Shown piece after piece: positions 38,960 to 64,000 of a stretch of DNA of 64,000 nt; within the stretch, counting starts at the first letter, position 1, and the number at the start of each line of letters is the position of its first letter. The DNA is taken from positions 27,302 through 91,301 of the forward strand of contig JACPRP010000014.1 of the NCBI GenBank assembly GCA_016189905.1, read 5' to 3'. The notes beneath the pieces were generated by a model. That model was given only the letters and a program-made list of their open reading frames with translations, was not told where the DNA came from and did no database searches. A program made the translations under genes and the position numbers. This stretch comes from Chloroflexota bacterium (GTDB taxonomy: Bacteria > Chloroflexota > UBA6077 > FW602-bin22 > JACPRP01).

Positions 38960-39115
38960 GGCCGATTACGCTATTTATAGCGTTTTGCGAAAAGATCGAG
39001 CTGTTGTCCCGGCTGTTTAGGGGTGACTGGCTGTGTAGGGGCGACTCGTAGTCGCCCTCAGCAAAGAATCGAGTGGTCAATATTCACGCAGACCGCTGTA
39101 GGAGGTGCGCGCATC

Positions 39116-44418: not shown

Positions 44419-46077
44419 ATGCTAAAGAAGATCGTGACTGACGTTCTGGTGGTGGGCTCTGGAGCGGCGGGTCTTTGCGCGGCCATCGCGGCCAGGCAGG
44501 GAAATGCGCAAACGCTCCTGCTTTCGATCACCTCCGCCGGCGCGGGCAACTCCACCGCCGTGTCAGGCGCAATAATGAATGGCGCCGTGGGCCCAGACGA
44601 TTCGCCGCAGATGCACCTCGAAGATACTCTCCGCGCCGGCGCCCTTCTGAACGACGTGCCGTTGGCGGCCAAGGTTGTTGAATCGATGCCCATCTGTCTG
44701 CCCAGACTGGAAGAATGCGGCGTGGGTTTCTTGAAAGAGGATGGGCGGTACATAGTCGACCGGTCCCCAGGGCACACCCGAGCGCGAACGGTGTTGTTTC
44801 AGCCAAGAGCGGGCACCACTCTGTCGAAGCCGCTGGCCCGCACGGCAGTGCAGTTGGGAACGAAGATAATATCCAACTTCAACCTGGTCAAGGTCCTGGT
44901 TCAAGACGGTCGCGCTATTGGGGCCATCGGGTATGTCTGGGAAACTGGCCAGATCGTGCATGTGGCCGCCAAAGTGGTCATCCTGGCGACAGGCGGGGCA
45001 TCTATGCTTTACAGCCGAACGCGAATCCCACCGGGCGTGCCCGGCGATGGCTACGGCATCGCCTTAGATGCCGGCTTGACGCTGCAAGATATGGAGTTCG
45101 TTCAGTTCTATCCGACGATACTGGCTGAGCCCGGGATGGCGAAAGTGGTGGTCAGCTATGATTACTTCATCAGGTCTGGCGCTGTTTTCGTAAACTCTCT
45201 CGGCGAAGACATCGTCACCAAGTACGATCTGCCTGATTCCCGAATGATCACGCGCGATCAGCTTTCTATCGCCATCGCGCGCGAGATCTACGAAGGCCGA
45301 GGTGTGGATGGGGCGCTGTTTATGGACGCGACGTCCTGCAGGACGCAGATCGACAGCGTCATGGGCTCCACCAACGCTTTCATCAGAATCGTGAGAGACC
45401 GGCTGGCGCAGGGAGAGGATCTTCTAGCGCGGCCCATTCGTGTGGCGCCAGCCAATCACTACTACATGGGCGGGGTTCAAGCCGCTCCCACTGGCGAGAC
45501 AGTTATTCACGGTCTGTTGGCCTGCGGCGAGGTGGTCGGTGGCACCCATGGTGCCAACCGTCTTCAGGGCAACTCCCTCTCCGAAACAGTGGTTATGGGC
45601 TTCGAGGCAGGAAATACGGCCGCGGGCCTGGCGTCCCACCTTCCGCCACCACCAACTCCTGAACGCACGATTCGTGAAACTGCCTTGCGCCTTAGAGTGA
45701 GTCTGGACAGGCGATCGGGAACCCCTGTCCGAGAAATCGTGAAAGCCCTGCAATCGGTGATGACCGCCAAGGCGGCGCTCGTGCGCGAAGGTGAAGGCTT
45801 ACAGGACGCAAAAGCCGCCATCGACAGCCTGCGGCAGGAGATTCCCCATGCCGTCGCAATTGCGCCACGTGAAAGGGCTCAGCTAACCACGTTGTCCCAG
45901 CTTTTCGACACCGCCGAATGCGTCGTGGCATCGGCCCTCGCCCGGCAGGAGAGCCGTGGCGCCCACTTTCGTCTCGATTACCCCGAGCGCAACGACGCCG
46001 AGTGGCTGAAACACATCACCTGCGCCAGACGCGACGGGGAGATAGTGAACTCGCAGTCCCAGGTCAGGGGCGCATAA
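44419..46077 (+). CDS. FAD-dependent flavoprotein of the L-aspartate oxidase / succinate dehydrogenase-fumarate reductase (NadB/SdhA) family
   Basis: DVLVVGSGAAGLCAAIAA (FAD dinucleotide fold), …HYYMGG…, GLLACGEV…GTHGANRL.GNSL, ESRGAHFRLDYPERND. Confidence 0.8.
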   Translation: MLKKIVTDVLVVGSGAAGLCAAIAARQGNAQTLLLSITSAGAGNSTAVSGAIMNGAVGPDDSPQMHLEDTLRAGALLNDVPLAAKVVESMPICLPRLEECGVGFLKEDGRYIVDRSPGHTRARTVLFQPRAGTTLSKPLARTAVQLGTKIISNFNLVKVLVQDGRAIGAIGYVWETGQIVHVAAKVVILATGGASMLYSRTRIPPGVPGDGYGIALDAGLTLQDMEFVQFYPTILAEPGMAKVVVSYDYFIRSGAVFVNSLGEDIVTKYDLPDSRMITRDQLSIAIAREIYEGRGVDGALFMDATSCRTQIDSVMGSTNAFIRIVRDRLAQGEDLLARPIRVAPANHYYMGGVQAAPTGETVIHGLLACGEVVGGTHGANRLQGNSLSETVVMGFEAGNTAAGLASHLPPPPTPERTIRETALRLRVSLDRRSGTPVREIVKALQSVMTAKAALVREGEGLQDAKAAIDSLRQEIPHAVAIAPRERAQLTTLSQLFDTAECVVASALARQESRGAHFRLDYPERNDAEWLKHITCARRDGEIVNSQSQVRGA

Positions 46078-51182: not shown

Positions 51183-51335
51183 TTACTGTCGATCGTCTAT
51201 CTCTGGACTCTCTGCCGCCCCAAACTCATGTTGGCAGAACGGGCAGATCAGCTTCACCTGCTTAGACTTCAGCCCATAGTCGCAATAAAACCTGTCGCTG
51301 CACTTCGGGCATTTCACCCAGAAGATCTTTTCCAT
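51183..51335 (-). CDS. Unannotated 50-aa zinc-ribbon protein (not in the supplied ORF track, below its size cut-off)
   Basis: My translation: MEKIFWVKCPKCSDRFYCDYGLKSKQVKLICPFCQHEFGAAESPEIDDRQ*. Two CPxC knuckles. GGAAAGGA lies 6 nt upstream. It sits 44 nt downstream of the UbiD-family gene on the same strand. Confidence 0.5.
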   Translation of the reverse strand: MEKIFWVKCPKCSDRFYCDYGLKSKQVKLICPFCQHEFGAAESPEIDDRQ

Positions 51336-51378
51336 CCCGTATCCTTTCCATACTCACTTAGTTCGACAAGGTCCAAAG

Positions 51379-52761
51379 CTAGTTTATCCATTCCTCCAGC
51401 TTGATCCTCTCCATCGCCGCGTCAGGCACCTTTATCACCGACGGGAAAGCGATATCGTGGGGCCGAGTAGCGTCGACGATCACCTTGCTGTGTCCCATGG
51501 CCGTGATGAAAGAACACGAAACGTTCTCGATATAAGATATGTCTCGCTTGGGATTGGTCGCCGTCACGACGGCCCAGACGACATCCCGCTCGTTGAACAC
51601 GTCGACGTCGTCGTCGACTATGACAACCCATTGGAACTGCCTGGCCGAAGTCAGGACCTCCAGCGCGACCGCCTTGGCCTCACCTTCATGCCTCTTGTCG
51701 ATCGAGACGTAGCAAGAGAAGCGACCGCAGCCTGAATCCGGCAGGTGCACCGCCTTGACGTTGGGGTATTTCCTCTGGAGTGCGTTGTAGATGCTGCCCT
51801 CTTTCGGGATGCCTCCCAGGCTCCAGTGCCCTTGATGGCCTGAGAAGATATCCTGCATCTTTGCCCCGCGACGGTGCGTGACCGCGGTGACGTCGGTTAT
51901 CGGGCTCAGACACTGCGCCTGATAGTGCCGTGTCACCTCGCCAAATGGGTTCGCGATCTCGCGTACGCCGGGTGGCATTACCCCCTCGATGATCAGCTCG
52001 GCGTCGGCCGGCACCATGAACTTGTCGCCCCAGGTTTCGGAAGGCGTCAGACGGAGCGGCTCGCCCAGATATGCCCCAATAGCATCGTAATCATTTGTTC
52101 CCCATGGCGCCAGCGCCAGGGTGCCAAGATAGAAACCCGGATGATGGCCCAGGACGTTGATTATCGGCACCGGCTCGCCGCGCTTCTCATACTTGGCGAA
52201 GATGCGATCGATGTGCGGGGAATGTCTTACCGTCCCCAGCTTGCGCGGGCCTTTATACACCGATTTTACGAATGAAACGTCGTAGAACCCTTCATCAGGG
52301 TCCCGCATCACAACGGCCATTGTGATATAAGGGCCGAGGTCCATTTCGTAGTGACGGACCATGGGCAGTTTCCGCAAGTCAACCTGATCGTCCACCTCGA
52401 CGATCTCCTTAACGGGAGCATCGCTTTTGGCGATATTCTCGGCCGTCATTCGTAGCTTCTCTCGCCGCGCGAACTCTATCGAGAGGGGCATCTTACTCTG
52501 GTCGCGCGGCAGGTCTAGAATGGTGGCGCAACGCTCTCGCGTTCCGAACACGTTCGAGACGAGCGAGTACTCGGACTCCTCACCGAGCAGGTTCTTGGCC
52601 GACTTGAAATGCACGAGAGGGAAGCGATTGGCTTTGTCGAGATGCTCCAGGATAGCCGTCGCATCGTAGTTATCAGGGTTGATTGTTCGCTTGATCTCGA
52701 GTACGTCGTCCGGAAATAGCTCTTTCAGTTGACTGATGAAGTCGCCGAGATTCTTGGCCAT
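51379..52761 (-). CDS. UbiD-family decarboxylase, divergent paralog 2
   Basis: Overall UbiD architecture (…DLGPYITMAVV…, …VPADAELIIEG…). The usual EGPFGE.TGY block reads ANPFGEVTRHY. ATG follows GAGGAGG. Confidence 0.8.
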   Translation of the reverse strand: MAKNLGDFISQLKELFPDDVLEIKRTINPDNYDATAILEHLDKANRFPLVHFKSAKNLLGEESEYSLVSNVFGTRERCATILDLPRDQSKMPLSIEFARREKLRMTAENIAKSDAPVKEIVEVDDQVDLRKLPMVRHYEMDLGPYITMAVVMRDPDEGFYDVSFVKSVYKGPRKLGTVRHSPHIDRIFAKYEKRGEPVPIINVLGHHPGFYLGTLALAPWGTNDYDAIGAYLGEPLRLTPSETWGDKFMVPADAELIIEGVMPPGVREIANPFGEVTRHYQAQCLSPITDVTAVTHRRGAKMQDIFSGHQGHWSLGGIPKEGSIYNALQRKYPNVKAVHLPDSGCGRFSCYVSIDKRHEGEAKAVALEVLTSARQFQWVVIVDDDVDVFNERDVVWAVVTATNPKRDISYIENVSCSFITAMGHSKVIVDATRPHDIAFPSVIKVPDAAMERIKLEEWIN

Positions 52762-52826
52762 TTAAGGCTTCGGTTACCTCCTCGAACAAAATTTGCCCCG
52801 TGGGGGACAACTCGGTGCCATATGCG

Positions 52827-52862
52827 GATAGGGCGGCAAAGGGTAATCCCCGCCGCCCTATC
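52827..52862 (-). promoter_or_regulatory. Intercistronic perfect 11-bp-stem hairpin (GATAGGGCGGC…GCCGCCCTATC) flanked by CCCCCACGG repeats
   Basis: Seen directly in the 153-nt gap between the FAD subunit gene and the UbiD-family gene. Confidence 0.4.
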
Positions 52863-52914
52863 GCTCTTAAGAAAAGCCGTGGGGGAGCACCAGACGCTCT
52901 CGCCCACGAAAAAC

Positions 52915-53898
52915 CTATGCCAGACCTGCCACTTTGGTAAGGGCATCTTTCACCAGCACCCTGACCAGCCGCTTTCGATAAGCCGGCGAAACCTCCATGT
53001 CGGACACCGGCTTCGCCTGCTTGAAGGCCGCCTCGGCCGCCTCGGCTATCGTCTCCTGGCTGACCTTTTTGCCCAACAGCGCGTTCTCGCTATCCTTGGC
53101 CACGAATGGGGCGGAGCCAACCCCCGTGACGGCGATGGCTGCTTTGCTGCATACCCCGTTCTCCTCACCCAGAGCGGCGGCAACTCCGACGATCGGGAAA
53201 TCGATGGCCTCGCGCCGGCGGAACTTCAAGTAGGTGCTCCGCTGTCCGTTGGCCGCTACGGGTACGATCACCTCGGCGATCAGCTCGCCGGGGTTCAATA
53301 TCGTCGGTTTCTTTCCGTCGTCGACGAACAATTCCTCCAGGCCAATGGTACGCTCTCCACTCGCGCTGACCAACCGCACCCTCGCGCCGAGCGCTAGCAA
53401 TGCGGGCGCCGTGTCGCCGCTGTACAGGGCATAGCAGCGCTTGCTGGCTTTGGCCATGTAGCAGATCGAGCCTCCTGCTTTGAGGCAGGCCTCGCGTCCC
53501 TGTCTCCAGGTGTACGTCTGATTGTAATACCAGCAGCGGGTCTCCAGGCAGATGTTGCCGCCAATCGTTCCCATATTCTGCAACTGCGTCGCGCCAACCG
53601 CGGCCGCGGCCTCCGCCAGGGCCGGCGCCTGCTCACGAACCGCCGCGGACTTCTGCACGTCCGATAGTGCCACCAGAGCGCCTATGCGTAGTTCAGCTCC
53701 GTCGCTCTTGATCTCGGCAATTCCGTCGATGCGCTTGATGTCGACGACAAACTGCGGCTCGACGAGTCTTTGCTTCATGCGCACCAGAATGTCGGTGCCC
53801 CCTGCGATGATCCTGGCCTTGTCTCCGTGCTCGGCGAGAATGGCGCACGCCTCGACAAGGCTCTTGGGTTCCAGATGCTCAAACTTGGTAAGTCTCAT
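52915..53898 (-). CDS. Xanthine-dehydrogenase-family Mo-hydroxylase 1, FAD-binding medium subunit (CoxM/XdhB-like)
   Basis: FEHLEPKSL.EA…IIAGGTDILVRMK and …TIGGNIC…. Its start overlaps the stop of the large subunit gene. Confidence 0.85.
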   Translation of the reverse strand: MRLTKFEHLEPKSLVEACAILAEHGDKARIIAGGTDILVRMKQRLVEPQFVVDIKRIDGIAEIKSDGAELRIGALVALSDVQKSAAVREQAPALAEAAAAVGATQLQNMGTIGGNICLETRCWYYNQTYTWRQGREACLKAGGSICYMAKASKRCYALYSGDTAPALLALGARVRLVSASGERTIGLEELFVDDGKKPTILNPGELIAEVIVPVAANGQRSTYLKFRRREAIDFPIVGVAAALGEENGVCSKAAIAVTGVGSAPFVAKDSENALLGKKVSQETIAEAAEAAFKQAKPVSDMEVSPAYRKRLVRVLVKDALTKVAGLA

Positions 53899-56249
53899 TA
53901 GCGCACCTCCGACAGGACTCTGTCCTTCGCCTTCTGCTCATCCAGGGCCTTCAATACCTTCTCTGGAGTAATGGGAAGATCAGTCATCCACACCCCAATC
54001 GCGTTATGAATTGCGTTTACAATGGCCGGGATCGTCGACACCTGAGTTCCCTCACCCGATTCTTTAGCGCCAAATGCGCCAACCGGATCGAGTGTCTCAA
54101 TCGAATAAGAGATCATCTCCGGCATATCGCCAACGGTAGGCATCGCGTAGCTGGTGAAGTTACTGCTCAAGGTCTGACCGTCGTCCTCCACGCAGTGCTC
54201 ATAAATGGTATGGCCTACGCCCCCGCCAATTGATCCCTCGTGCTGTCCTTCAACCGCAAGCGGATTTAGCGCAAAACCGCAGTCGTGCGCCACGACCATC
54301 CTCGTGACGTTCACCTTGCCGGTCTCGGTGTCCACCTCTACCCACGCTGCCTGGGTGCCAAAGGTGTACGAGCCCGCGAGGTTACCGATGCCCTTCTCGA
54401 AATCGACCGGGTCGATCTCCTGGCCCCAGCTTCCCGACCCGATAACCGTCGTGCCCGCCCCGTGAGCCACCGTCAGACGTGCCAGGTCGCGGAAGCGCAT
54501 CGACTTGTCTGGAGCGCCCTTGACGAACACCTTTCGATCCCGCAGCTCGATGTCCTCAGGCTTGGCTTCGAGAAGCTCGGCCGCCACAGCCACAAGTTGG
54601 CGTCGCGCGTCCTCCGCAGCTATCCTCACGGCGTTGCCGGCGGTCGAGCTCACCCGACTGCCGAAGCTGCCCGGATCTACCGGAGTCACCGTGCTGTCGG
54701 TCTGAGGAACCACCACATCCTCGATCCTGGTCCCCAGCACCTCGGCCACGATCATAGCAAGCACGGTCTCGGATCCCTGCCCGCTGTCGGTAGACCCGGT
54801 CATAAGGGATACCGTTCCATCTTCGTGGACCTTGATCACCGCCGAACAGCAGTTGTGCCCGCGCAGACGAACCCCTGAGCAAAAAGAGTTGCAGGCGATT
54901 CCCACACCTTTGGCGATGCGCCCAGTGGGCTCCTCGGCCTTCTCAGGCCAGGAGCGAAACTCCTTCTCCCAATCGACCGCCTTCAGAGCCTCGTCGATGC
55001 TCTCCTGCAGCCCGCAGCTTGTGACCTTCATTCCGTTCGGCGTGGTGTAGCCCGTGTAGGCTGAGTTCCTTCGACGAATCTCCACCGGATCGATTCCCAG
55101 GTCCTCGGCGATCATATCGATCTGCACATCGGCCGCGTAGCGGATCTGCTGGATTCCGTTGCCTCTTTGAGCCACAGACACTGGCCGGTTTGTGTAGACC
55201 CGCTTGCCATCGAATCTCACGTTGGGAACAACGTAGGGGAGATTCATAAAATAGAAAGCGTTCGCGATCGTCGTGGGGCCAATCGCCGTTCCAGCCCCGC
55301 CGTCCGCGATTATGCGGCATTCGCAGGCGAGTAGCGTCCCGTCCTTCTTGACCCCGGTCTTCAGCCAGACGATCATGGGGTGCCGTCTCCGCTGCGCCGT
55401 GAGCACCTCTTCCTGAGTCAGTGTCAGTTTAACTGGCCTGCCGGTTTTCTTCGAGAGCATCACCGCAGCGAAATCGAGCGCATACGAGCCGTTCTTCCCC
55501 CCATAGCCCCCGCCAATGTATGGCTGAACCACTCGAACGTTGCTAAGAGGCACGTCGAAGCAGTTCGCCAGATTACGATACAGGAAGTAAGGGCTTTGTT
55601 TTGAAGCCCAAACCGTGATGCGGTTCGGTGGCTCCCAGCTCGCGACAAGCGAGTTTGGCTCCATAAAGCCGTGCAAGACCGACTGGCTGTAGAAACGGTC
55701 CTCGCGAACGTAATCGGCATCCTTGAAAGCCGCGTCGACATCGCCGAACTCGGTATGCATATGAATGCTGATATTTCCCGGCTTGTCCGCGTGAATCTGC
55801 GGCGCTCCCTCGCGAAGCGCTGCCTCGGGATCGGTGACAGCCGGCAGAACCTCATACTCCACCTTTATTAGCTCGACAGCTTCCTGAGCGATATCCTCGT
55901 CGATAGCGGCAACCGCGGCGACTTCCTCGCCCACAAAGCGGGCCTTGTCCAGCGCCATCGGATACTCGTCCCTTGTATCCGGCCGCAGACCATATCTGAA
56001 CTTCCCAAAATCGGCACCCACCACGATTCCACGCACGCCAGGCAGCCTCTCGGCTTCGCTCGTATCTATGCTGAGAATCTTAGCGTGAGCATGTGGACTG
56101 CGCTTCAACTTTGCGTATAGCATTCCCGGCAGGACCAGATCATCGGCATAATTAGCTTTGCCGGTGGCCTTTACCGGCCCGTCTACCCTGGGCAACCGTT
56201 GGCCCAGAACTGAGTACTGTGGCACCCTGAATTCCCCCTCTCCTAGCAC
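53898..56249 (-). CDS. Xanthine-dehydrogenase-family Mo-hydroxylase 1, molybdopterin-binding large subunit
   Basis: 783 aa. GKANYADD…, VQPYIGGGYGGKNGS, …RGNG…, …GSFGSRV…, …FGAKESGEG…. Confidence 0.9.
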   Translation of the reverse strand: MLGEGEFRVPQYSVLGQRLPRVDGPVKATGKANYADDLVLPGMLYAKLKRSPHAHAKILSIDTSEAERLPGVRGIVVGADFGKFRYGLRPDTRDEYPMALDKARFVGEEVAAVAAIDEDIAQEAVELIKVEYEVLPAVTDPEAALREGAPQIHADKPGNISIHMHTEFGDVDAAFKDADYVREDRFYSQSVLHGFMEPNSLVASWEPPNRITVWASKQSPYFLYRNLANCFDVPLSNVRVVQPYIGGGYGGKNGSYALDFAAVMLSKKTGRPVKLTLTQEEVLTAQRRRHPMIVWLKTGVKKDGTLLACECRIIADGGAGTAIGPTTIANAFYFMNLPYVVPNVRFDGKRVYTNRPVSVAQRGNGIQQIRYAADVQIDMIAEDLGIDPVEIRRRNSAYTGYTTPNGMKVTSCGLQESIDEALKAVDWEKEFRSWPEKAEEPTGRIAKGVGIACNSFCSGVRLRGHNCCSAVIKVHEDGTVSLMTGSTDSGQGSETVLAMIVAEVLGTRIEDVVVPQTDSTVTPVDPGSFGSRVSSTAGNAVRIAAEDARRQLVAVAAELLEAKPEDIELRDRKVFVKGAPDKSMRFRDLARLTVAHGAGTTVIGSGSWGQEIDPVDFEKGIGNLAGSYTFGTQAAWVEVDTETGKVNVTRMVVAHDCGFALNPLAVEGQHEGSIGGGVGHTIYEHCVEDDGQTLSSNFTSYAMPTVGDMPEMISYSIETLDPVGAFGAKESGEGTQVSTIPAIVNAIHNAIGVWMTDLPITPEKVLKALDEQKAKDRVLSEVR

Positions 56250-56318
56250 GTGCTCGCCACTCTTGGGCCTAAGCTTTAGCGAAAGGCTTCGAGTACGGCC
56301 CGTCGATCGATATTGTCC

Positions 56319-56786
56319 TTAGTTTGCTTGCTCTCCGGCCGCTTCGATCGCGTCGAGTATCTTCACGTATCCTGTGCAGCGGCACAGATTGCCCCCGATG
56401 GCCTTTTTCACCTCTTCCCTGCTCGGCTTAGGATTCTCGTCCAGCAGCGCCTTCGCAGAAAGCACGAGACCAGGAGTGCAGTAGCCGCATTGGATTGCCC
56501 CTTTGTCGAGAAACGCCTGCTGTATTGGGTGTAGTCTGTCGCCGGTCGCCATGCCCTCGATCGTTTCGATGTTCTTGCCCTGGGCCTCTACTGCCAGCGT
56601 CAAACAAGACAATACTGCCCTGCCGTCGATGATAACCGTGCACGCGCCGCAATCGCCCGAGTCGCAGGCCTTCTTCGTTCCAGTGTAACCCAGGGTCTCG
56701 CGCAGCACCTCCAGCAACGTCCTCTGAGGCTCCACCACCACTTCGTGCACTACGCCATTGACATTCAGTTCGATGATACGCTTCAC
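56319..56786 (-). CDS. Xanthine-dehydrogenase-family Mo-hydroxylase 1, [2Fe-2S] small subunit
   Basis: CDSGDCGACTVIIDG (plant-type cluster) and CGYCTPG…CRCTGY (second cluster). Confidence 0.9.
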   Translation of the reverse strand: MKRIIELNVNGVVHEVVVEPQRTLLEVLRETLGYTGTKKACDSGDCGACTVIIDGRAVLSCLTLAVEAQGKNIETIEGMATGDRLHPIQQAFLDKGAIQCGYCTPGLVLSAKALLDENPKPSREEVKKAIGGNLCRCTGYVKILDAIEAAGEQAN

Positions 56787-56937
56787 TAATCAGTCACCTA
56801 CCTTCCATTGGTCGACCCTACTTCGTCGCCGTTCGTGTCTACACAATACAACTCGCTATCGACCTACCACGCTGATGACCGCGAGACCCCATCCGCGCGA
56901 GTCGATAACGCTCGTCTTTCATCGTTGGGGCACATCT

Positions 56938-56965
56938 ATTTTAGTCAGTCTCGACGTTTTGTCAA
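56938..56965 (-). promoter_or_regulatory. Putative promoter: TTGACA - 16 nt - TAAAAT (minus strand)
   Basis: Read directly from the reverse complement, about 150 nt upstream of the small-subunit start. Confidence 0.55.
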
Positions 56966-57226
56966 GGCATTGATTGGCATGACACGTCGCCTGACATGGT
57001 ATGCGTGCCTCGAAAACATTGTTACCGAAGATTACAGGCAATGTGACTCAGCCCGACAATTGCGGACAAATCCCTGAAGAGCTTCGCCAGAGGGGATCAG
57101 GTTGGCTGCGGATGGGAAAATCGGCGGCAGCCAGATTCATCTTTTACGTTTGCAGATGCTTCTGGCTACCGCCTGGCCCTCTTCTTATCCTGCTTTCACG
57201 TAGCGAATGCCGTGATAACAGGCCAC

Positions 57227-59542
57227 TTACTTCTGCGCCTTCTCTTTCGCCTTCTCTTTCAGGGCTTTGACTATCTTCTCCGGCGTTGCCGGCTGTTCTT
57301 TGATCCACACGCCCGCAGCATCGTGAATGGCGCAAATTACGGCCGGAGGCGTGCTCACGTGACTGGCCTCGCTGGCCTCCTTTGCTCCGTAGGGACCATC
57401 TGGATCATTCGTCTCGACGTCGATGAGCTTCATTTCCGGAATGTCGACAGAATGTGGCATCTTGTAGTCGACGAAGGTGGGATTCAGCGTCCTACCCTTA
57501 TCCATTATGAAGTCCTCGTATATCGCCTGTCCGAGTCCCTGAATGGCGCCCCCTTCGATCTGCCCTTCCGCTAGCAACGGATTCAGCATACGGCCGCAGT
57601 CGGATGCAATGGTGAAGCTCTGGGTGGTTAGCTGACCTGTCTCCAGGTCAACGCCCACCCTGGCAGTCTGTGCCGTGAAGCTGTAAGATACGCCAGCGTT
57701 ACCATAGCCTGATTCCATTCCTAATGGTTCCAGGCCATAGGTAGAGTAGCCAGTGCCCATGATAACCGCGCCCGTACCCGAATAGCAGGCGACCCTGGCC
57801 ATGCGATCGAATGGCATCTGCTTGTCTGGATCGGACGCGACGAATACCATACCGTCGCGAATGTCCACATCCTCGGGCTTGACTTTCCAGGTCTGCGCCG
57901 CCACTTCGACCAGTTGCTTCTTGACTTCCTGCGCAGCCTTCTGCACTGCCTGCCCGCCAAGCACCGTAACACGGCTCCCGTAGCTGCCCGGGTCTGCCGG
58001 AGTGTAGCTGGTGTCCACTTTCTGTGAGATCACGGCCGACACAGGAATGCCAAGCTCTTCAGCCGCGATCATCGCCAGCACCGTGTCAGATCCCTGCCCA
58101 CAGTCGGTGGCTCCGGTGATGAGGTTCACCGTGCCGTCCTCGCAGAGCCTGATGATCGCCGCGCATGCCTGGTGGCCCATCTGCCTGGCGCCGGTGAGAT
58201 ATGGGGCTCCAGAAACACCAACCCCCCAGGAAATATTCCCCTCTTTCTTGGGCAGCTCATTGCGCTCGTGCCAGTATGGCTCGGCTACCTGTCGGAAAGC
58301 CTCTTTCATCCCACAGGTCTTGAGCGTTACCCCGTTGATCGTCGTATACGTGGTGCCCGGCGCCGGGTTATCGATGGAATTCTTCATTCTGATCTCGAGC
58401 CGATCCATTCCCAGCTCGTCAGCGATCATATCCATCTGGCATTCCGCCGCAAAGCGGGTGTGCGTGACGCCGTGGCCTCTCATCGCCGCTCCCATCGGAT
58501 TGTTGGTGAAGACGCGGTAGCCGTCATACTTGAAGTTGTCCAGTTTGTACGGTAACGTCGTGCCAAAGCCAGCGAGGTACAGGCTGAGAGGCCCAACCGC
58601 GGTGTAGCCGCCGCCATCGGCGATAACCTTATGCTGTATCGCGGTTATGATGCCGTCTCGCGTAGCCCCCATCTTGCTGTAAGTGATCATATTGTGCCGT
58701 CTACGGCTGGTGGTAAGCTCCTCTTCCATCGACTCGACGTACTTCACCGGCTTGCCGGTCATCTTCGAGAGAAGCACGGCGCAGAAGTCGCCGGCCAGCG
58801 AATCGTTCTTGGTCCCCCCGAACCCGCCACCGATGTATGGCTGAATCACTCTTACTCGGCTCAACGGCAGCTTGAAGCACGCCGCCAGGTGCCTGTAGTG
58901 GAAATACGGGCTCTGCTTCGCCGCGCGGACTGTGATGTATCCCGAGGGATCATAATAGGCCAGCGTGGCCGGGGGCTCGATGTAGCCCTTGGTCGCACGG
59001 GACGTCGCGAACCTGTCTTCGCGGACGATGTAGGCATCGGCAAAAGCCTTCTCCACATCGCCAAAGTTCCAGTGATATTGCACGCTGATGTTGTTCTCCG
59101 CGTAATCGTGTACCGCGGGAGCCCCGTCCTTCATAGCTTCCTCGGGGTCGAAGACCCCAGGCAACTCCTCATACTCCACGTCGACGAGGTCGCAGGCCTC
59201 CTCGGCAGTGTCTTCGTCGATAGCGGCGATGCCGGCCACCGCTTCGGCCCAGTAGCGAACCTTATCCACCGCCACCGGAGGCTCATCTCTTGTCGCGGGC
59301 ATCCAGCCCCAGGTCCATCCGCCAAAGTCTTTGCCCGTGACGACGGCTTTTACCCCAGGGAGGCGCAGCGCCCGACTGGCATCGATATTCACGATGCGTG
59401 CGTGAGCATAAGGACTTCGCACCAGCTTGCACCAGAGCATGCCCGGAAGAGAGAAGTCGGCGGCGTAGCCGGCCTTGCCGGTGACCTTTTCCACGCCATC
59501 GACACGGGGTACTGATTTGCCAATTAAAGAGAACTCCGCCAT
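57227..59542 (-). CDS. Xanthine-dehydrogenase-family Mo-hydroxylase 2, molybdopterin-binding large subunit
   Basis: 771 aa. GKAGYAADF…, IQPYIGGGFGGTKND, …RGHG…, …GSYGSRV…, …YGAKEASEA…. Confidence 0.9.
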   Translation of the reverse strand: MAEFSLIGKSVPRVDGVEKVTGKAGYAADFSLPGMLWCKLVRSPYAHARIVNIDASRALRLPGVKAVVTGKDFGGWTWGWMPATRDEPPVAVDKVRYWAEAVAGIAAIDEDTAEEACDLVDVEYEELPGVFDPEEAMKDGAPAVHDYAENNISVQYHWNFGDVEKAFADAYIVREDRFATSRATKGYIEPPATLAYYDPSGYITVRAAKQSPYFHYRHLAACFKLPLSRVRVIQPYIGGGFGGTKNDSLAGDFCAVLLSKMTGKPVKYVESMEEELTTSRRRHNMITYSKMGATRDGIITAIQHKVIADGGGYTAVGPLSLYLAGFGTTLPYKLDNFKYDGYRVFTNNPMGAAMRGHGVTHTRFAAECQMDMIADELGMDRLEIRMKNSIDNPAPGTTYTTINGVTLKTCGMKEAFRQVAEPYWHERNELPKKEGNISWGVGVSGAPYLTGARQMGHQACAAIIRLCEDGTVNLITGATDCGQGSDTVLAMIAAEELGIPVSAVISQKVDTSYTPADPGSYGSRVTVLGGQAVQKAAQEVKKQLVEVAAQTWKVKPEDVDIRDGMVFVASDPDKQMPFDRMARVACYSGTGAVIMGTGYSTYGLEPLGMESGYGNAGVSYSFTAQTARVGVDLETGQLTTQSFTIASDCGRMLNPLLAEGQIEGGAIQGLGQAIYEDFIMDKGRTLNPTFVDYKMPHSVDIPEMKLIDVETNDPDGPYGAKEASEASHVSTPPAVICAIHDAAGVWIKEQPATPEKIVKALKEKAKEKAQK

Positions 59543-59544
59543 CG

Positions 59545-60036
59545 TTATGCGCCTCCCCTTCCGTCACTCGATGCAGCCATCGCGACTTTAGCAGCTCTGA
59601 TTGAATCGAATATCTTGGCGTAACCCGTGCACCGACACAGGTTACCAGATATTCCTTTCTTTATCTCGTCGTCAGTCGGATTCGGATTGTCGTCAAGCAT
59701 CACTTTGGTCGACATGATCATGCCTGGAGTGCAGAAACCGCACTGGAAGCCACCATTATCTATGAACGACTGCTGAATCGGATGAAGCCTCTCTGCCTGA
59801 GCCAGTCCTTCGATGGTGGTTATGCGCTTGCCGTTCGCCTCGGCGGCCAGCACGAGACAGGAGTTGACCGTCTTGCCATCCATAAGCACGCTGCACGCGC
59901 CACACTCGCCGAGACCGCAGCCTTCCTTGGTGCCGGTCATCTGCAGTTCTTCCCTGATAACTTCCAGGAGCGTCCGCCACGGCGCTACTTCTACCTCGTG
60001 CTGCACGCCGTTTATCTCGAGCTTGATACTCTTCAT
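59545..60036 (-). CDS. Xanthine-dehydrogenase-family Mo-hydroxylase 2, [2Fe-2S] small subunit
   Basis: Internal ATG (MKSIKLEINGVQHEV…) chosen at 60036. CGLGECGACSVLMDG and CGFCTPG…CRCTGY. Confidence 0.9.
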   Translation of the reverse strand: MKSIKLEINGVQHEVEVAPWRTLLEVIREELQMTGTKEGCGLGECGACSVLMDGKTVNSCLVLAAEANGKRITTIEGLAQAERLHPIQQSFIDNGGFQCGFCTPGMIMSTKVMLDDNPNPTDDEIKKGISGNLCRCTGYAKIFDSIRAAKVAMAASSDGRGGA

Positions 60037-60041
60037 CCTTA

Positions 60042-60956
60042 CTATGCCCCCTTTCCGAAGCCTTGAGCGGAAGCAGCTTCGTCCGACAGCAACTCTCTTA
60101 TGGCCCTTCTCGTCAAGACCCTGACCATATCGCGGCGATACTCGGCCGAGGCCCGATGATCGCTGATCGGTCGACATCCTTCCGCCGCCGCCTCCGCGAC
60201 CTGATCGATCAGCTCGTCGGAAAACTTGTTGCCCTTTAATATGCTTTCGGCCTGCGCGACCCTGATCGGCGTCGGGCTTACCGCTCCGAGAGCGATGCGC
60301 AAATCTTTGCAGATTCCGTTCTCTGGCGTAACCATCACGGCCACACCCACAACCGCCAGGTCCATCGCCCGTCGTGGCGTCAGCTTGATGTATTTGCCAC
60401 GGGAATTCGCTGGGGGATTCGGAATCTCGATGCCTGTGACGATTTCATCTGCGCTCAGAACTGTCTTGGTGGGACCGGTAAAAAAGTCTTGAATCGCCAC
60501 CGTCCTGGAACCCTTCTCGCTGACCACCGACACCTTCGCGTCGAGGGTCAGGAGGGACGGAGCCATATCGGCGGAGGGGACAGCGTTGCAGATGTTTCCA
60601 ACCACCGTCCCACGGTTTCTCACCTGTGGAGAAGCCATGCTCTCGGCCGCCTGAGCCAGCATAGGGAATGTCTCAAGGACAACATCCGAGCGCTCCACCG
60701 CGCGCACAGTTGCCAGAGGCCCTAGCTTCAGCCCGGCGCCATCATAACTGATGTAGTCCAGCCCGGATATCCCCTTCAGATCTACGATGTAATCGATGCC
60801 CTTCATCGCCCTTCTCTTCAGCTTGGGCACCACATCGCTTCCACCAGCAATCACCTTGGCGCTTCCCTGATAACGGGATAACAAGGCCAGCGCCTCCTCG
60901 ATTGACTGCGGAGCAAGATAATCGAACTTGGGTAGTCGCCTGTAGAATGTTACCAT
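60042..60956 (-). CDS. Xanthine-dehydrogenase-family Mo-hydroxylase 2, FAD-binding medium subunit
   Basis: FDYLAPQSIEEA…VIAGGSDVVPKLK and …TVVGNIC…. Confidence 0.85.
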   Translation of the reverse strand: MVTFYRRLPKFDYLAPQSIEEALALLSRYQGSAKVIAGGSDVVPKLKRRAMKGIDYIVDLKGISGLDYISYDGAGLKLGPLATVRAVERSDVVLETFPMLAQAAESMASPQVRNRGTVVGNICNAVPSADMAPSLLTLDAKVSVVSEKGSRTVAIQDFFTGPTKTVLSADEIVTGIEIPNPPANSRGKYIKLTPRRAMDLAVVGVAVMVTPENGICKDLRIALGAVSPTPIRVAQAESILKGNKFSDELIDQVAEAAAEGCRPISDHRASAEYRRDMVRVLTRRAIRELLSDEAASAQGFGKGA

Positions 60957-61010
60957 TCACACACTCCTCGTCTCGGATTTCTCGGGTTCCAAACGGTCAT
61001 CCGCCCTCAC

Positions 61011-61286
61011 TTATCCTCCTCCAAACGGAGTTATCTCCGCCATCACCATTACCTGGTCGCCATCATTAATCTTTGCGTCAAGGAGGTAGGTTTCTTTGCC
61101 ATTGATAATCACTGTGTGAACGTCTTCACCCAGTTTGTCGCCCCTCATAAGTTCCATGCTGCGGCACAGCTCCCCGATCTTGGAAAATAGATCTCTAACA
61201 GTGGCACTTTCCCCCGGGAGCTCTACCCGCGCTGGGGTGACAAACCTTCCGCACATTGTGATGTTCGAGTCTACTGTAATAACCAT
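61011..61286 (-). CDS. MoaD/ThiS-family ubiquitin-like beta-grasp protein ending in GGG
   Basis: 91 aa. C-terminus …NDGDQVMVMAEITPFGGG* matches the D.V.…P.GG signature of sulfur-carrier/Ubl proteins. It is the first gene of the Mo-hydroxylase 2 transcription unit. Confidence 0.6.
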   Translation of the reverse strand: MVITVDSNITMCGRFVTPARVELPGESATVRDLFSKIGELCRSMELMRGDKLGEDVHTVIINGKETYLLDAKINDGDQVMVMAEITPFGGG

Positions 61287-61393
61287 TAACCCTGCCCCAA
61301 ATACATCGTTGTAATTGCCTGTAGTCGATTCGCTGCAAGTTGTCTCAATTGCCCGCCCGGCACCTCCACCCTCCTTAGACGTAAGTCCCCGAC

Positions 61394-61422
61394 ATTCTAC
61401 ACCAAGTCCAATCGATATGCAA
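61394..61422 (-). promoter_or_regulatory. Putative promoter: TTGCAT - 17 nt - TAGAAT (minus strand)
   Basis: Read directly, about 105 nt upstream of the MoaD-like start. Confidence 0.5.
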
Positions 61423-61487
61423 GATTGTCTGCGCGCGCAACGCGCAGAAAAACATTCGAATGGTTGGCTACCAGACGATGAGAAACC

Positions 61488-61517
61488 GGGCTGACAAGAG
61501 CGCGCTTTTGTCAGCCC
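61488..61517 (-). terminator. Hairpin terminator (GGGCTGACAA / TTGTCAGCCC) abutting the stop codon
   Basis: A 10-bp perfect stem begins immediately after the TAA of the hydrolase gene. On the minus strand it is followed by GGTTTCTCAT. Confidence 0.5.
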
Positions 61518-62234
61518 TTATTCTTGCCCGCTCACGTACTCGATCGCCTCGGCAAGCGTGATAACCGTCGCGTATTTCGCGTTCATCTCGTACAGGCTCA
61601 CGAGGTGTGACATCTCCGCCCGGTCGAAGACGCCTTCTTCGACCACGAACGTGTGGAAACCATGGGAACAGGCATCTACCGCCGTTGCCCGGACGCACCC
61701 AGAAGTTACACACCCCGTCAACAGCACCGTGTCCACACCTTGCTGTCGCAGGTATATGGCGAGGGGCGTGGAAAAGAAGGCTGATGCGCGGGATTTCTCG
61801 AGCACCCATTCACCCGGTAGCGGCGCTATCAAATCGGGAATCTCCTGTCCCCGCCTTTGCATCTCTGAGTTCCACGCGTCTTCGTCCTGGACATCAGGCT
61901 GGGGACCAAGCCTCGCTGCACCGCCGAGAAACCTCTTCGTCGCCAGGTTGCCTCGCGTATACACCACGGGTCTCTGTTTCTCCCGGCACACACTCAACAG
62001 ATTCTTTATGTTCGGCAGCGCGGCCCACCCTACATCGCCGCAACTGGTCGCGAACTCTTCAACCGATTGCAGCACATCCGCCGGTTTTTGGCCGATGAAG
62101 CCGTATGTCACGTCGATAACCAGGAGCGCTGGATTTTGACCGAAAGCCTGACGTTTTCCATGGCCGCCTTTTTCGTAGATCGCTCGCTCTCGCTCTGGCA
62201 AAACATTGCGCCAGCTCGTCATTTGTCCCTCCAT
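61518..62234 (-). CDS. Isochorismatase-family cysteine hydrolase (nicotinamidase / maleamate amidohydrolase / N-carbamoylsarcosine amidase-like)
   Basis: ALLVIDVTYGF (Asp) and LLTGCVTSGCVRATAVDA (nucleophilic Cys). Its ATG abuts the stop of the upstream UbiD-family gene. Confidence 0.85.
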   Translation of the reverse strand: MEGQMTSWRNVLPERERAIYEKGGHGKRQAFGQNPALLVIDVTYGFIGQKPADVLQSVEEFATSCGDVGWAALPNIKNLLSVCREKQRPVVYTRGNLATKRFLGGAARLGPQPDVQDEDAWNSEMQRRGQEIPDLIAPLPGEWVLEKSRASAFFSTPLAIYLRQQGVDTVLLTGCVTSGCVRATAVDACSHGFHTFVVEEGVFDRAEMSHLVSLYEMNAKYATVITLAEAIEYVSGQE

Positions 62235-63824
62235 CTAAACCCTGATTCGATTCTGCGCTAGCTTCTCGCCGGTTATGTAATGCTCACCTCTAAGGGCCAG
62301 CTCTGCCTCTTCGGCGATCTCATCCGGCCAGTAACCAAGCGATGCCCCGTACCATGGCATCTTCGGGTTTAGCTCGGGCAATCCTTCCTCCTCCCAAATC
62401 TGCCTGGCTTTCTCCATGAACTCCTTCCTCGGCAGAGATGTCGGCGGATAATCCCATTTCCTCGTGGCGTCGATCAGCAGCGAAGTTGTGCGTGGGTCCT
62501 CGAGAGCAGTCTGCTTGTCCTCGGGAGGCACGGCAGATGGGTCCAAAGAGGCGGTCTTGCCCTTGGCGATATGAATGTCTCGATGCGGTTGCATCCGGTA
62601 GCACAGCGCCCACATAACCGAATCCATATCTCGCGGATCGATGTCGTCGTCGACGGCGATCAAAACCTTCGCGTAGCGGGTGCTGGCGGCGCAGATCCCG
62701 TACAGGGCCTGCCAGACCTGTGGCGTTGTGGCGTTCTTCAACGCTATGACGCACAGGATGCGCCCGCCGCTCTCCAGATGATAGCCTACGTCGACCACGC
62801 TGTCGATGCCGAGATCGTATTTTAGCAGGTGATAGTCGGTTGCCTCTTTGCCCATCTGGGTCATCAAGCTGCTTTCGCTCGGCGGGAACTGGCTGATGTA
62901 CGCGTTCCAGATTGGCTGCTTGCGATGGGTGATGCATTTCACGTTCACGCACAGGTTGGGCCCACGCAAGCCCATATAGCCCGTGAACTCGCCGAACGGA
63001 CCTTCGCGTTCCAGATAATCGGTGGCAATCTCACCCTCCACGACGATTTCAGCCGTGGCCGGAACTTCCAGATCGACCGTCTTGCATTTCACCAGTTGCA
63101 CGGGCTCGCCCGCGATGCCGCCGGCGACGGCAAGCTCGTCCACGCCATACGGAACCTTGGTCACCGCCACCAGACCCACGTTCGGCGTGGGCCCAATGGC
63201 CACCGCCACCGGCATCGGAATGCCCAGCCGCTTGTACTTCGCCCAGTGCATCCGAATGTGCTGCGGCATCGGCGCGTCTACCCCGGTCCGCGTGGGACTC
63301 TTCACCATCGTGCGATGATTGCCCACGTTCCTTACGCCTGTTTCAGGGTCTCTGGAGATCCAGTTTCCCGCGGAGAAATACGGCGCGTTGTCGAACCCCG
63401 GCGTCGATATCGGAATCGCGAATTCCCCCAGCCCCCCGTGCTCTAGCAAGGTCGCGCCCACGTGCACCTCTTCCTGACATGGTCCAGAGTCGACCACGAC
63501 GGGCTCGATCCGATTCACCTGCGCCCGCTGCCACTTCTTCGCGAGAGCATCGCGCGAAGGCTCGGTCGCCATAGCCAGGGCATATATGTCTCTCGATCCG
63601 GCGTGACAGGCGACGAGGACCTTGTTGTCATACTTCTTGCCCTTTACGTCGACCACGTTCTCGAACAGAAACGCCTTTCGGTCCTTATCGGGAAGTCCAC
63701 GGAACTGCCAGCGAACCAGAGGCATCAACTCGGTATCCTTGTTGATCTCCCTCTTGATTCTTACCAGCTTGCCTCTTTCTTCCAGCACCTCGATGTATTC
63801 TCTGATATCCTTATAGTAGGCCAT
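62235..63824 (-). CDS. UbiD-family decarboxylase, paralog 3
   Basis: MAYYKDIREYIEVLEERGKLVRIKREI…, NVGNHRTM, AVAIGPTP, ELAVAGGIAGEPVQLVKCKTVDLEVPATAEIVVEG, REGPFGEFTGYMG. Confidence 0.85.
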   Translation of the reverse strand: MAYYKDIREYIEVLEERGKLVRIKREINKDTELMPLVRWQFRGLPDKDRKAFLFENVVDVKGKKYDNKVLVACHAGSRDIYALAMATEPSRDALAKKWQRAQVNRIEPVVVDSGPCQEEVHVGATLLEHGGLGEFAIPISTPGFDNAPYFSAGNWISRDPETGVRNVGNHRTMVKSPTRTGVDAPMPQHIRMHWAKYKRLGIPMPVAVAIGPTPNVGLVAVTKVPYGVDELAVAGGIAGEPVQLVKCKTVDLEVPATAEIVVEGEIATDYLEREGPFGEFTGYMGLRGPNLCVNVKCITHRKQPIWNAYISQFPPSESSLMTQMGKEATDYHLLKYDLGIDSVVDVGYHLESGGRILCVIALKNATTPQVWQALYGICAASTRYAKVLIAVDDDIDPRDMDSVMWALCYRMQPHRDIHIAKGKTASLDPSAVPPEDKQTALEDPRTTSLLIDATRKWDYPPTSLPRKEFMEKARQIWEEEGLPELNPKMPWYGASLGYWPDEIAEEAELALRGEHYITGEKLAQNRIRV

Positions 63825-63858: not shown

Positions 63859-64000
63859 CTATTCAACGCTGAGTTGAACCACTTGCGGGGACGTAGCGCC
63901 CTTGCGCCATTCGTAAACGAACAGCGAAACCCCAATCATCAAGCCAACGATGTTGACGTAGATAACCCACCCGGCATCTGCCTTCAACGGTATGAGCAAT
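63859..64000 (-). CDS. 3' end of a membrane protein gene (5' part outside the window)
   Basis: My translation: …LIPLKADAGWVIYVNIVGLMIGVSLFVYEWRKGATSPQVVQLSVE*. One hydrophobic helix. The …VYEWRKGA tail is reminiscent of NuoA-type subunits, but identity is not established. Confidence 0.3.
   Translation of the reverse strand, partial: LLIPLKADAGWVIYVNIVGLMIGVSLFVYEWRKGATSPQVVQLSVE

Follow-up and report, generated by a model that had tools for sequence, protein, structure and literature searches.

A gene cluster of two XO-family molybdenum enzymes, UbiD proteins and a cysteine amidase in a Chloroflexota bacterium, possibly for the oxygen-independent breakdown of aromatic or heteroaromatic acids

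We describe a 12.6 kb gene cluster (positions 51183-63824) in a 64-kb stretch of genomic DNA, hereafter the window, from an uncultured Chloroflexota bacterium (GenBank assembly GCA_016189905.1, contig JACPRP010000014.1, positions 27,302 to 91,301 of the forward strand). The cluster brings together two molybdenum (Mo) enzymes that belong to the xanthine oxidase (XO) family, two members of the UbiD family (UbiD-2 and UbiD-3), a cysteine amidase and a 50-residue zinc ribbon. Our leading interpretation, put forward tentatively and somewhat short of an even bet, is that four modules, each conserved separately elsewhere, have come together at this locus in a lineage-specific way, and that they jointly break down an imported aromatic or heteroaromatic carboxylic acid without oxygen.

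The four putative modules are as follows. Module a would join UbiD-3 to a hydrolase of small amides or ureido compounds, of the N-carbamoylsarcosine-amidase/NicF type. Module b (unit 2) is a predicted four-gene XO-family enzyme: a MoaD-like protein ending in GGG, a flavin adenine dinucleotide (FAD) subunit, a 2x[2Fe-2S] subunit and the Mo subunit. Module c (unit 3) is an hcrCAB-type XO-family enzyme with a predicted extra [4Fe-4S] cluster in its FAD subunit, and is probably coupled to ferredoxin. Module d would pair the non-canonical UbiD-2 with the zinc ribbon as an obligatory partner. The gene content, the states of domains and motifs, and the conservation of the sub-modules are direct observations.

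Several features speak for a single pathway. The genes are co-directional and tightly packed, with unrelated genes around them, and the UbiD-2/zinc-ribbon pair and UbiD-3, which are contiguous elsewhere, here bracket the Mo operons and the amidase gene. In addition, UbiD-3 and the amidase recur side by side, operons elsewhere combine a Mo enzyme with a UbiD and amidohydrolases, and genes for carboxylate uptake lie by UbiD-2 homologues.

If the modules do cooperate, the UbiD proteins, which depend on prenylated flavin mononucleotide (prFMN), would strip carboxyl groups from the ring. UbiD-3 would be the catalytic unit, with UbiD-2 and its zinc ribbon serving either as its partner or as another decarboxylase whose active site is altered. 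Formation or cleavage of a ring C-OH bond would fall to the two HcrA-like Mo enzymes, by means of water or reducing equivalents. For unit 3, the substrate would be an activated one, probably a coenzyme A (CoA) ester, or a ring with a para electron-withdrawing carbonyl, and the reaction may be reductive (dehydroxylating). The amidase would free ammonia from an amide or ureido intermediate. Here we infer the co-function of the modules, the directions of the reactions and the class of substrate.

A preliminary description of the locus had named eleven open reading frames (ORFs) and had seen in the cluster a candidate for an undescribed pathway. All eleven ORFs were found at their coordinates on the minus strand, with the domains described; domains were called with Pfam and NCBIfam over about 49 ORFs of the window. 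The annotation of the cluster proteins at NCBI is generic only (MBI2953075-85), and the view that this is an unusual, uncharacterized cluster of two XO-family Mo enzymes, UbiDs and a cysteine amidase, with no oxygenase recognized, is supported. The component families are known already, as is the theme of a UbiD with an XO-family enzyme (the hmf pathway, anaerobic phenol and 4-hydroxybenzoate metabolism). New are this combination, the non-canonical UbiD-2/zinc-ribbon clade, the MoaD-like partner of the unit 2 type, and a second HcrCAB-like family with a [4Fe-4S] loop.

The two molybdenum enzymes

Units 2 and 3 both encode complete three-subunit XO-family enzymes, each with the domain set listed for unit 2 in Table 1 and with all domains far above the Pfam cut-offs. 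The subunit genes are ordered FAD, 2Fe-2S, Mo in unit 2 and 2Fe-2S, Mo, FAD in unit 3, and the two large (Mo) subunits are 49% identical. For both, the best NCBIfam match is the alpha subunit of 4-hydroxybenzoyl-CoA reductase (TIGR03194; the reductase is hereafter called 4-HBCR), at 748.8 bits for unit 3 and 698.3 bits for unit 2, and the best match in the PDB is HcrA of Thauera aromatica (1RM6_A), at 533 and 498 bits. Neither large subunit reaches the TIGR03194 equivalog cut-off of 994.55 bits, and their identity to 1RM6_A (38.2% for unit 3, 37.5% for unit 2) equals that of every homologue group retrieved. Since the scores fall below the cut-off and identity to HcrA is 37-38%, both appear from sequence to be members of a large HcrA-like sister clade, in which we identified no characterized member, rather than 4-HBCR equivalogs. 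The second-closest solved relative of both is the nicotinate dehydrogenase of E. barkeri (L and M chains summed, about 455-460 bits).

Other identities were considered and rejected. The preliminary description had held that its model would fall if the large subunits clustered with CO dehydrogenases or purine xanthine dehydrogenases; these score about 320 and 190 bits, against 500-530 bits for HcrA. A direct homologue of HmfABC is ruled out by length, HmfA having 1015 residues (PMC8091172) and the large subunits here 771-783. We found nothing relevant in the literature searched on how furoyl-CoA dehydrogenase compares with 4-HBCR.

The likeness to 4-HBCR extends further in unit 3 than in unit 2. 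In T. aromatica the 4-HBCR operon has the order FeS-Mo-FAD, and unit 3 shares with HcrCAB (1RM6/1SB3) this gene order, the subunit set and the insertion in the FAD subunit. The insertion aligns to HcrB without gaps, so that Cys121, Cys137, Cys145 and Cys154 fall on the [4Fe-4S] ligands Cys122, Cys138, Cys146 and Cys155. From this loop, unit 3 is probably coupled to a ferredoxin-type partner. Unit 2 differs from HcrCAB in that it has no [4Fe-4S] loop and has a MoaD-like partner instead. The HcrB loop carrying these cysteines binds the extra [4Fe-4S] cluster of 4-HBCR (PMC11760930), and the 4-HBCR operon of G. metallireducens is organized as in T. aromatica (PMC1924859).

The XO family has just two known reductive dehydroxylases, 4-HBCR and Ucdh, which acts on urolithin C, and both remove a hydroxyl group para to an electron-withdrawing carbonyl (PMC12771579, PMC11760930), which provides a precedent for the reaction proposed here for unit 3. 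Ucdh (UcdCFO of Enterocloster bolteae) is likewise a three-subunit XO-family enzyme. It removes a phenolic hydroxyl from a free, non-CoA substrate, and its closest characterized relative is 4-HBCR (PMC12771579, PMC11760930); its likeness to the units here is by description only. Unlike unit 3, Ucdh has no [4Fe-4S] loop (PMC11760930).

These matches raise the possibility of classical anaerobic phenolic metabolism, in which unit 3, unit 2 or both would be a true 4-HBCR and the UbiDs would be phenol-type or hydroxybenzoate (de)carboxylases feeding a benzoyl-CoA pathway. It agrees with the best NCBIfam and PDB matches, with the hcrCAB order and four-cysteine loop of unit 3, with the analogy between a UbiD plus zinc ribbon and VdcCD (PMC8379154), and with the best specific-model score of UbiD-1 (a third UbiD, outside the cluster), which is to phenylphosphate carboxylase alpha. 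On the other hand, both large subunits remain well below the 4-HBCR equivalog cut-off and are no closer to HcrA than all the other homologue groups, and the models for VdcC and phenylphosphate carboxylase (Ppc) score far below their cut-offs. The window holds no gene for an AMP-binding ligase, CoA transferase, benzoyl-CoA reductase, 4-hydroxybenzoate-CoA ligase or phenylphosphate synthase, and does encode an alternative complex III with a c-type cytochrome. We therefore give this possibility little credence.

Orthologues of the unit 3 large subunit (76-81% identity) occur in Chloroflexota, in metagenome-assembled genomes (MAGs) labelled Tectomicrobia or Deltaproteobacteria, and in the cultured Geobacter argillaceus. 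Gene order and the long FAD subunit are kept in all four FeS-Mo-FAD orthologue loci examined, and their neighbours are genes for CoA transferases, a 599-aa acyl-CoA dehydrogenase, enoyl-CoA hydratase, 3-hydroxyacyl-CoA dehydrogenase and thiolase. A fifth locus (L009) has another layout, with an AMP-dependent ligase. Loci of the Geobacter type are sigma-54 regulated and continue downstream with the 599-aa acyl-CoA dehydrogenase and an acetyl-CoA hydrolase/transferase. The identity of 76-81% is reached across phyla (L008 of G. argillaceus, L010, L011 and L012) and suggests that the FeS-Mo-FAD([4Fe-4S]) operon has moved by recent horizontal transfer between Chloroflexota and Geobacter/Deltaproteobacteria.

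The unit 2 type is very common: more than 100 metagenome proteins are 74-78% identical to its large subunit. Many are labelled '4-HBCR alpha' by the Joint Genome Institute (JGI), a label that looks unjustified. A small protein ending in GGG (67-91 aa) accompanies all three independent unit-2-type operons examined, although its position varies; in both orthologue operons examined, a GGG-ending ORF of 67-70 aa lies between the FAD and FeS genes (L014, 9282-9494; L015, 9291-9494). The unit 2 type thus seems to have the MoaD-like protein as a conserved fourth component. The matches of this protein to known families are weak (moaD_arch 22.4 bits against a cut-off of 49.5; ThiS E = 0.0077), and PGAP names it as MoaD/ThiS family.

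A second, non-orthologous XO-family operon (37-43%) lies less than 10 kb from unit 2 or unit 3 orthologues in three of seven loci (L008, L009 and L014). Paired Mo-enzyme operons recur in this way, never as a pair of unit 2 with unit 3.

The UbiD proteins and the zinc ribbon

The window encodes three UbiDs. UbiD-2 and UbiD-3 belong to the cluster, and UbiD-1 lies in a separate group of genes at 36.2-40.3 kb. The domains UbiD_N, UbiD and UbiD_C are present in all three, which are 26-31% identical to one another. UbiD-1 (311 bits) and UbiD-3 (261.5 bits) exceed the TIGR00148 cut-off of 244.85, and UbiD-2 (233.5 bits) falls just below it. Each is 33-36% identical to HmfF of Pelotomaculum, which decarboxylates 2,5-furandicarboxylate, and HmfF (6H6V) is the best solved match of UbiD-2 and UbiD-3. 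HmfF His296, which is said to govern specificity for furan-type (heteroaromatic) substrates, is kept in UbiD-2 together with Arg331; at the His position UbiD-3 has Ser, and UbiD-1 has Val or Pro according to the alignment used. With this level of identity, the specificity His in UbiD-2 only, and no hmf context, none of the three qualifies as an HmfF. The hmf pathway of Cupriavidus basilensis (HmfABC furoyl-CoA dehydrogenase with HmfFG) likewise combines an XO-family Mo enzyme acting on a heteroaryl-CoA with a UbiD for a heteroaromatic dicarboxylate. In contrast, the window has no HmfD ligase, HmfE or UbiX/HmfG, and UbiD-2 lacks the Glu-Arg-Glu network.

It is in its active site that UbiD-2 stands apart. 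UbiD-1 and UbiD-3 have the canonical residues. UbiD-2 has D, K, A and E at the positions of N168, R173, E277 and E282 of Aspergillus niger Fdc1, where we take N168 to be the metal-binding Asn, in part from the five-residue spacing. The pattern D-K-(V/A/C/L/Q/E)-E is found in 75 of 79 metagenome homologues of UbiD-2 (L016-L095). Among 116 full-length library representatives (clustered at 50%), Lys occurs only in the four closest to UbiD-2, and 103 have NREE, NRDE or NRED. Fdc1 is inactive with R173K or with a non-acidic residue in place of E277, and the only changes it tolerates are from Glu to Asp (PMC5818171). We found no relevant description of a UbiD clade lacking Glu-Arg-Glu in the literature searched. 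Given its residues, UbiD-2 with its zinc ribbon would either work by a variant mechanism or serve UbiD-3 as a partner without catalytic activity. For the latter, phenylphosphate carboxylase, which has two UbiD-like subunits, offers a comparison.

The pairing of UbiD-2 with a zinc ribbon is well conserved. A metagenome scan with UbiD-2 gave 80 loci, against which all proteins of the window were compared. The zinc-ribbon gene lies 3' of the UbiD-2 homologue in about 28 of them (45-68% identity), and is missing from hardly any locus whose flank is long enough to show it. A UbiD-3 homologue (44-51%) comes directly after the pair in six loci (L030-33, L036 and L039), two of which have an Amidohydro_2 gene as the next one. 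Genes for carboxylate uptake (TAXI-TRAP, TctC and NMT1-type binding proteins) are found repeatedly near UbiD-2 homologues, and other XO-family enzymes adjoin UbiD-2 homologues in L030 and L062. More distant UbiD-2 homologues, of 43-44% identity, have housekeeping neighbours (aldehyde dehydrogenase, SAICAR synthetase, ThiC), which are uninformative.

The zinc-ribbon family is invariant at I4, F5, V7, C9, C12, F16, C18, L22, L29, C31, P32, C34 and F38. Its profile retrieved generic zinc fingers only from the PDB at E <= 10, and no VdcD chain. VdcCD and BsdCD likewise have a small (<10 kDa) two-CxxC zinc ribbon encoded beside the UbiD subunit, and the VdcD activator stabilizes the loops of VdcC that bear the Glu-Arg-Glu residues (PMC8379154). 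The parallel is in position and size only: the zinc ribbon here has no detectable sequence relation to VdcD, the VdcC model (NF041204) gives 218 and 237 bits against a cut-off of 650, and, unlike VdcC, the UbiD partner here itself lacks the canonical Glu-Arg-Glu.

A more ambitious reading of the clade, which we judge unlikely, is that UbiD-2 represents a distinct prFMN mechanism, or the non-catalytic subunit of a UbiD-2/zinc-ribbon/UbiD-3 (de)carboxylase. In this lineage, such a system would have recruited two HcrA-like Mo enzymes (one ferredoxin-linked, one MoaD-partnered) and an amidase into a new oxygen-independent route for heteroaromatic or phenolic polycarboxylates.

Flavoproteins of the FAD_binding_2 type (SdhA/NadB/TcuA-like) recur near UbiD-2 homologues (L024, L029, L048, L070, L077 and L095), in some loci in the order TAXI-TRAP, flavoprotein, UbiD. 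The flavoprotein of the window (44419-46077) is 25-30% identical to them.

The amidase and nitrogen-containing substrates

The amidase matches PF00857 with 115 bits. In alignment to N-carbamoylsarcosine amidase, three residues are conserved that we take to be the Asp-Lys-Cys triad: D in VIDV, K in LEKSRAS and C in TSGCVRAT. Among solved structures, the amidase is closest to N-carbamoylsarcosine amidase (E = 1e-34) and then to 3OT4/3UAO (E = 8.5e-24), which we take to be the maleamate amidohydrolase NicF. All NCBIfam matches are far below their cut-offs, with no equivalog for NicF, RutB, BiuH or PncA. Some homologues at 47-50% identity are labelled 'maleamate amidohydrolase' by JGI. Two short contigs of a relative (L098 and L099), from the same two samples as the organism of the window (SRR12113390 and SRR12113401), carry an amidase paralogue (63% identity) and, in convergent orientation to it, the 3' end of a UbiD-3 gene of 84% identity. 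They are the sole independent support for the link between UbiD-3 and the amidase.

The preliminary description had proposed an oxygenase-free route for N-heteroaromatic carboxylates such as pyridine mono- or dicarboxylates, in which two successive hydroxylations by Mo enzymes with water would be combined with decarboxylations by UbiDs and a step catalyzed by an amidase. Part of the evidence is consistent with such a route: the amidase is nearest to N-carbamoylsarcosine amidase and NicF, the E. barkeri enzyme ranks second among the solved relatives of both large subunits, the HmfF-type His is kept in UbiD-2, and, as had been described, no flavin monooxygenase or ring-cleaving dioxygenase was recognized among the ORFs scanned. 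The one dioxygenase-like match, to AmmeMemoRadiSam system protein B, is not a ring-cleavage enzyme according to NCBIfam. The known nic and pic clusters likewise combine an XO-family hydroxylase, an isochorismatase-fold amidase (NicF/PicF), an isomerase of the Asp/Glu-racemase fold and an Amidohydro_2 decarboxylase (PicC). They differ in the flavin monooxygenase NicC/PicB and the 2,5-dihydroxypyridine dioxygenase NicX/PicD, neither of which was found among the ORFs scanned, and to our knowledge UbiD enzymes are no part of them.

Operons on plasmids of Ensifer and Paracoccus offer a closer analogue. They have a conserved order of NCS2 nucleobase transporter, FAD-FeS-Mo enzyme, CobW-like GTPase, two amidohydrolases, UbiD, UbiX and XdhC, and occur in Paracoccus sp. 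SMMA_5 (L101; plasmid pNSM5b, 98-111 kb), Ensifer sp. PDNC004 (L102; plasmid, 117-128 kb) and L104. Identity is 37-39% for their Mo enzyme, at the HcrA-like level, and 32% for their HmfF-like UbiD, and their amidohydrolase genes are of the Amidohydro_2 type. Unlike the cluster here, they have one Mo enzyme rather than two, as well as the UbiX, the XdhC and the nucleobase transporter, and no zinc ribbon, isochorismatase-type protein or [4Fe-4S] FAD subunit. A related module without the Mo enzyme is present in Paracoccus methylovorus and in the archaeon Natrinema. The operon is, as far as we know, uncharacterized, and it provides a tractable model in cultured Alphaproteobacteria for the co-function of a Mo enzyme and a UbiD.

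An N-heterocyclic substrate is possible in view of the amidase type, these NCS2-linked operons and the His of UbiD-2. The complete N-heteroaromatic route seems improbable to us. No match reaches equivalog level for a nic or pic enzyme, and both Mo enzymes are nearer to HcrA, with no tie to the nicotinate, picolinate or quinoline hydroxylases to which they had been likened. Two sequential water-dependent hydroxylations are not the obvious reading of an HcrA-like pair of which unit 3 has a reductase-type [4Fe-4S] loop and orthologues in CoA-ester neighbourhoods. The maleate-isomerase-like gene, which reaches no equivalog cut-off, and the Amidohydro_2 gene, which matches no NCBIfam model, lie 13-37 kb from the cluster with unrelated genes between and are not linked to it, and the gene linkage of the cluster is not conserved. 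We found nothing relevant in the literature searched on a UbiD plus Mo-hydroxylase pathway for pyridine dicarboxylates.

One pathway or several

The main competitor to a shared pathway is that the cluster consists of four unrelated neighbouring operons in a paralogue-rich Chloroflexi genome. We regard this as rather unlikely, though as a serious contender. It would explain why the conserved context of each module elsewhere excludes the other modules, why promoter- and terminator-like signals lie between the units, and why the window holds so many paralogues of the same families. That XO-family operons often lie beside non-orthologous XO-family operons is what family expansion predicts. It accounts less well for the six loci in which UbiD-2/zinc ribbon and UbiD-3 are contiguous, given that these bracket the cluster here, for the recurrence of UbiD-3 next to the amidase, and for the theme of Mo enzyme, UbiD and amidohydrolase in distant lineages.

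Returning to the cooperative assembly that we favour, a number of observations weigh against it. The whole arrangement was found in no other genome or locus examined. Linkage in relatives, whose loss the preliminary description had named as grounds for abandoning its model, is largely not conserved: each of unit 2, unit 3, UbiD-3 and the amidase has its orthologues in different contexts. No UbiD gene accompanies unit 3 in the orthologue loci examined. On the two long contigs examined, unit 2 orthologues (75-78%) form stand-alone operons in housekeeping or unrelated surroundings. The 45-46% homologues of UbiD-3 found in a scan of a genome collection belong to MAGs of Binatia and Thermodesulfobacteriota, and share no neighbours with the window. 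The 67% amidase orthologue in another Chloroflexi MAG (L096) is next to hydantoinase A, a creatinase-like gene and an NMT1-type binding protein, and a 52% homologue has a creatinase-like neighbour too. The separate promoter- and terminator-like signals suggest three or four transcription units. In 64 kb with three UbiDs, two XO-family enzymes and five binding proteins, the likelihood of chance adjacency is not negligible. The scans of the window also found no UbiX or other Flavoprotein-domain ORF, no XdhC and no CoA ligase or transferase. With respect to the reaction of unit 3, PaoABC aldehyde oxidoreductase is an oxidative enzyme with an extra [4Fe-4S] cluster in its FAD subunit, and PaoB can be aligned through the insertion region of the unit 3 FAD subunit. 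The [4Fe-4S] loop therefore leaves the direction of the reaction unfixed.

Organization of the cluster and the rest of the window

The features of the cluster and of its surroundings are collected in Table 1.

Table 1. Coordinates (window numbering) of cluster genes, signals and other features
Feature	Position	Strand	Remarks
Membrane-protein ORF, 3' end	63859..64000	-	hydrophobic C-terminus, runs past the window edge; read from sequence
UbiD-3	62235..63824	-	529 aa; UbiD_N/UbiD/UbiD_C; canonical N-R-E-E
Isochorismatase-fold cysteine amidase	61518..62234	-	238 aa; Asp-Lys-Cys triad intact
Hairpin, probable terminator	61488..61517	-	13-bp stem, weak U tract, directly after amidase stop
MoaD/ThiS-like protein	61011..61286	-	91 aa; C-terminal GGG
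Unit 2 FAD subunit	60042..60956	-	304 aa; FAD_binding_5 + CO_deh_flav_C; without [4Fe-4S] insertion
Unit 2 2x[2Fe-2S] subunit	59545..60036	-	163 aa from internal ATG; Fer2 + Fer2_2
Unit 2 Mo large subunit	57227..59542	-	771 aa; Ald_Xan_dh_C + MoCoBD_1/2; HcrA-like
Sigma-70-like promoter match	56938..56965	-	TTGACA-16-TAAAAT, 11/12; in 440-nt gap upstream of unit 3
Unit 3 2x[2Fe-2S] subunit	56319..56786	-	155 aa; hcrC position
Unit 3 Mo large subunit	53898..56225	-	775 aa per MBI2953078.1; HcrA-like; ORF 53898-56249
Unit 3 FAD subunit	52915..53898	-	327 aa; ~40-aa insertion with four Cys
Two stable hairpins	52793..52863	-	between unit 3 FAD gene and UbiD-2; second one followed by T-run
UbiD-2	51379..52761	-	460 aa; D-K-A-E replacing N-R-E-E
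50-aa zinc ribbon	51183..51335	-	C9, C12, C31, C34 (two CxxC knuckles) + invariant C18
PIN-domain + HTH_17-domain genes	40862-41883		4-nt overlap
AmmeMemoRadiSam system protein B	31251-32147		Memo-like, weak LigB similarity; only dioxygenase-like match in window
IS21-family element	27218-29565		IstA transposase + IstB ATPase; separates binding-protein/Amdase group from rest of window
Alternative complex III genes	6-4648		molybdopterin-like ActB, 4Fe-4S protein, NrfD-like ActC, ActD, c-type cytochrome

As had been described, the UbiD-3 stop codon directly abuts the amidase start, and a hairpin, probably a terminator, follows the amidase (-22 kcal/mol, z = -3.6). The partial membrane-protein ORF stops 34 nt upstream of UbiD-3, at the window edge, so that unit 1 (UbiD-3 and the amidase) begins beyond the window and the cluster is truncated. 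For the promoter proposed for unit 3, a sigma-70-like match was found. The one proposed for unit 2 is only readable as TTGCAT-17-TAGAAT upstream of the MoaD-like gene. A 27-codon upstream ORF (61284-61367, minus strand) begins with a GTG 6 nt past a strong AAGGAGG, and its stop overlaps the start of the MoaD-like gene (TAATG), which may reflect translational coupling or a leader peptide. The ORF of the unit 2 2Fe-2S subunit spans 59545-60177, and identical Logan contigs call the start at 60036, which is probably the true one. UbiD-2 had been called divergent and the cluster divided into three transcription units. UbiD-2 is in fact on the same strand as unit 3, and the 153-nt spacer between it and the unit 3 FAD gene contains two strong hairpins, one of them terminator-like, which makes four units likelier than three. 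A search of the entire window with Rfam gave no match at gathering thresholds, and over 50.5-64 kb there was none even at E <= 1, so that the 5' leaders contain neither a molybdenum cofactor riboswitch nor any other known one.

The preliminary description had also extended the cluster to a 'supercluster' over 23-64 kb. The genes it named are present (UbiD-1, an Amidohydro_2 gene, five NMT1-type binding proteins, an Amdase/maleate-isomerase-like gene and an MFS transporter), but the region is discontinuous, with unrelated genes and the IS21 element between. The UbiD-1/Amidohydro_2/binding-protein group (36.2-40.3 kb) is separated from the cluster by the PIN/HTH pair (a probable toxin-antitoxin system), an adenine-deaminase-like gene, the SdhA/NadB-like flavoprotein, the MFS transporter, an FtsH-like protease and a BFN nuclease.

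The five binding proteins, of the NMT1/SsuA type (15377-17771, 21935-23335, 24111-25337 and 39023-40273), are lipoproteins with a signal peptide, a lipobox Cys and a linker rich in Pro, Thr and Ala. In the window, no permease or ATPase gene adjoins any of their genes. Elsewhere, at least nine metagenome loci have a homologous binding protein next to a UbiD-2 homologue, and L096 has one next to the amidase orthologue. The alternative complex III genes point to a respiratory host, probably (micro)aerobic or facultative in lifestyle.

Implications

Some consequences hold whatever the pathway. A UbiD clade with its own zinc ribbon that departs from the 'invariant' Glu-Arg-Glu is of interest in itself, and the unit 2 type is a very abundant, uncharacterized HcrA-like family with a conserved MoaD-like partner. 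The unit 3 family, with its [4Fe-4S] loop and its link to CoA metabolism, is a candidate for the third reductive dehydroxylase of the XO family, because only two are known. If the modules cooperate, the cluster would represent an oxygenase-free breakdown of aromatic or heteroaromatic acids in uncultured groundwater Chloroflexi, and would unite two classes of enzyme relevant to biocatalysis: reversible prFMN carboxylases and Mo hydroxylases/dehydroxylases.

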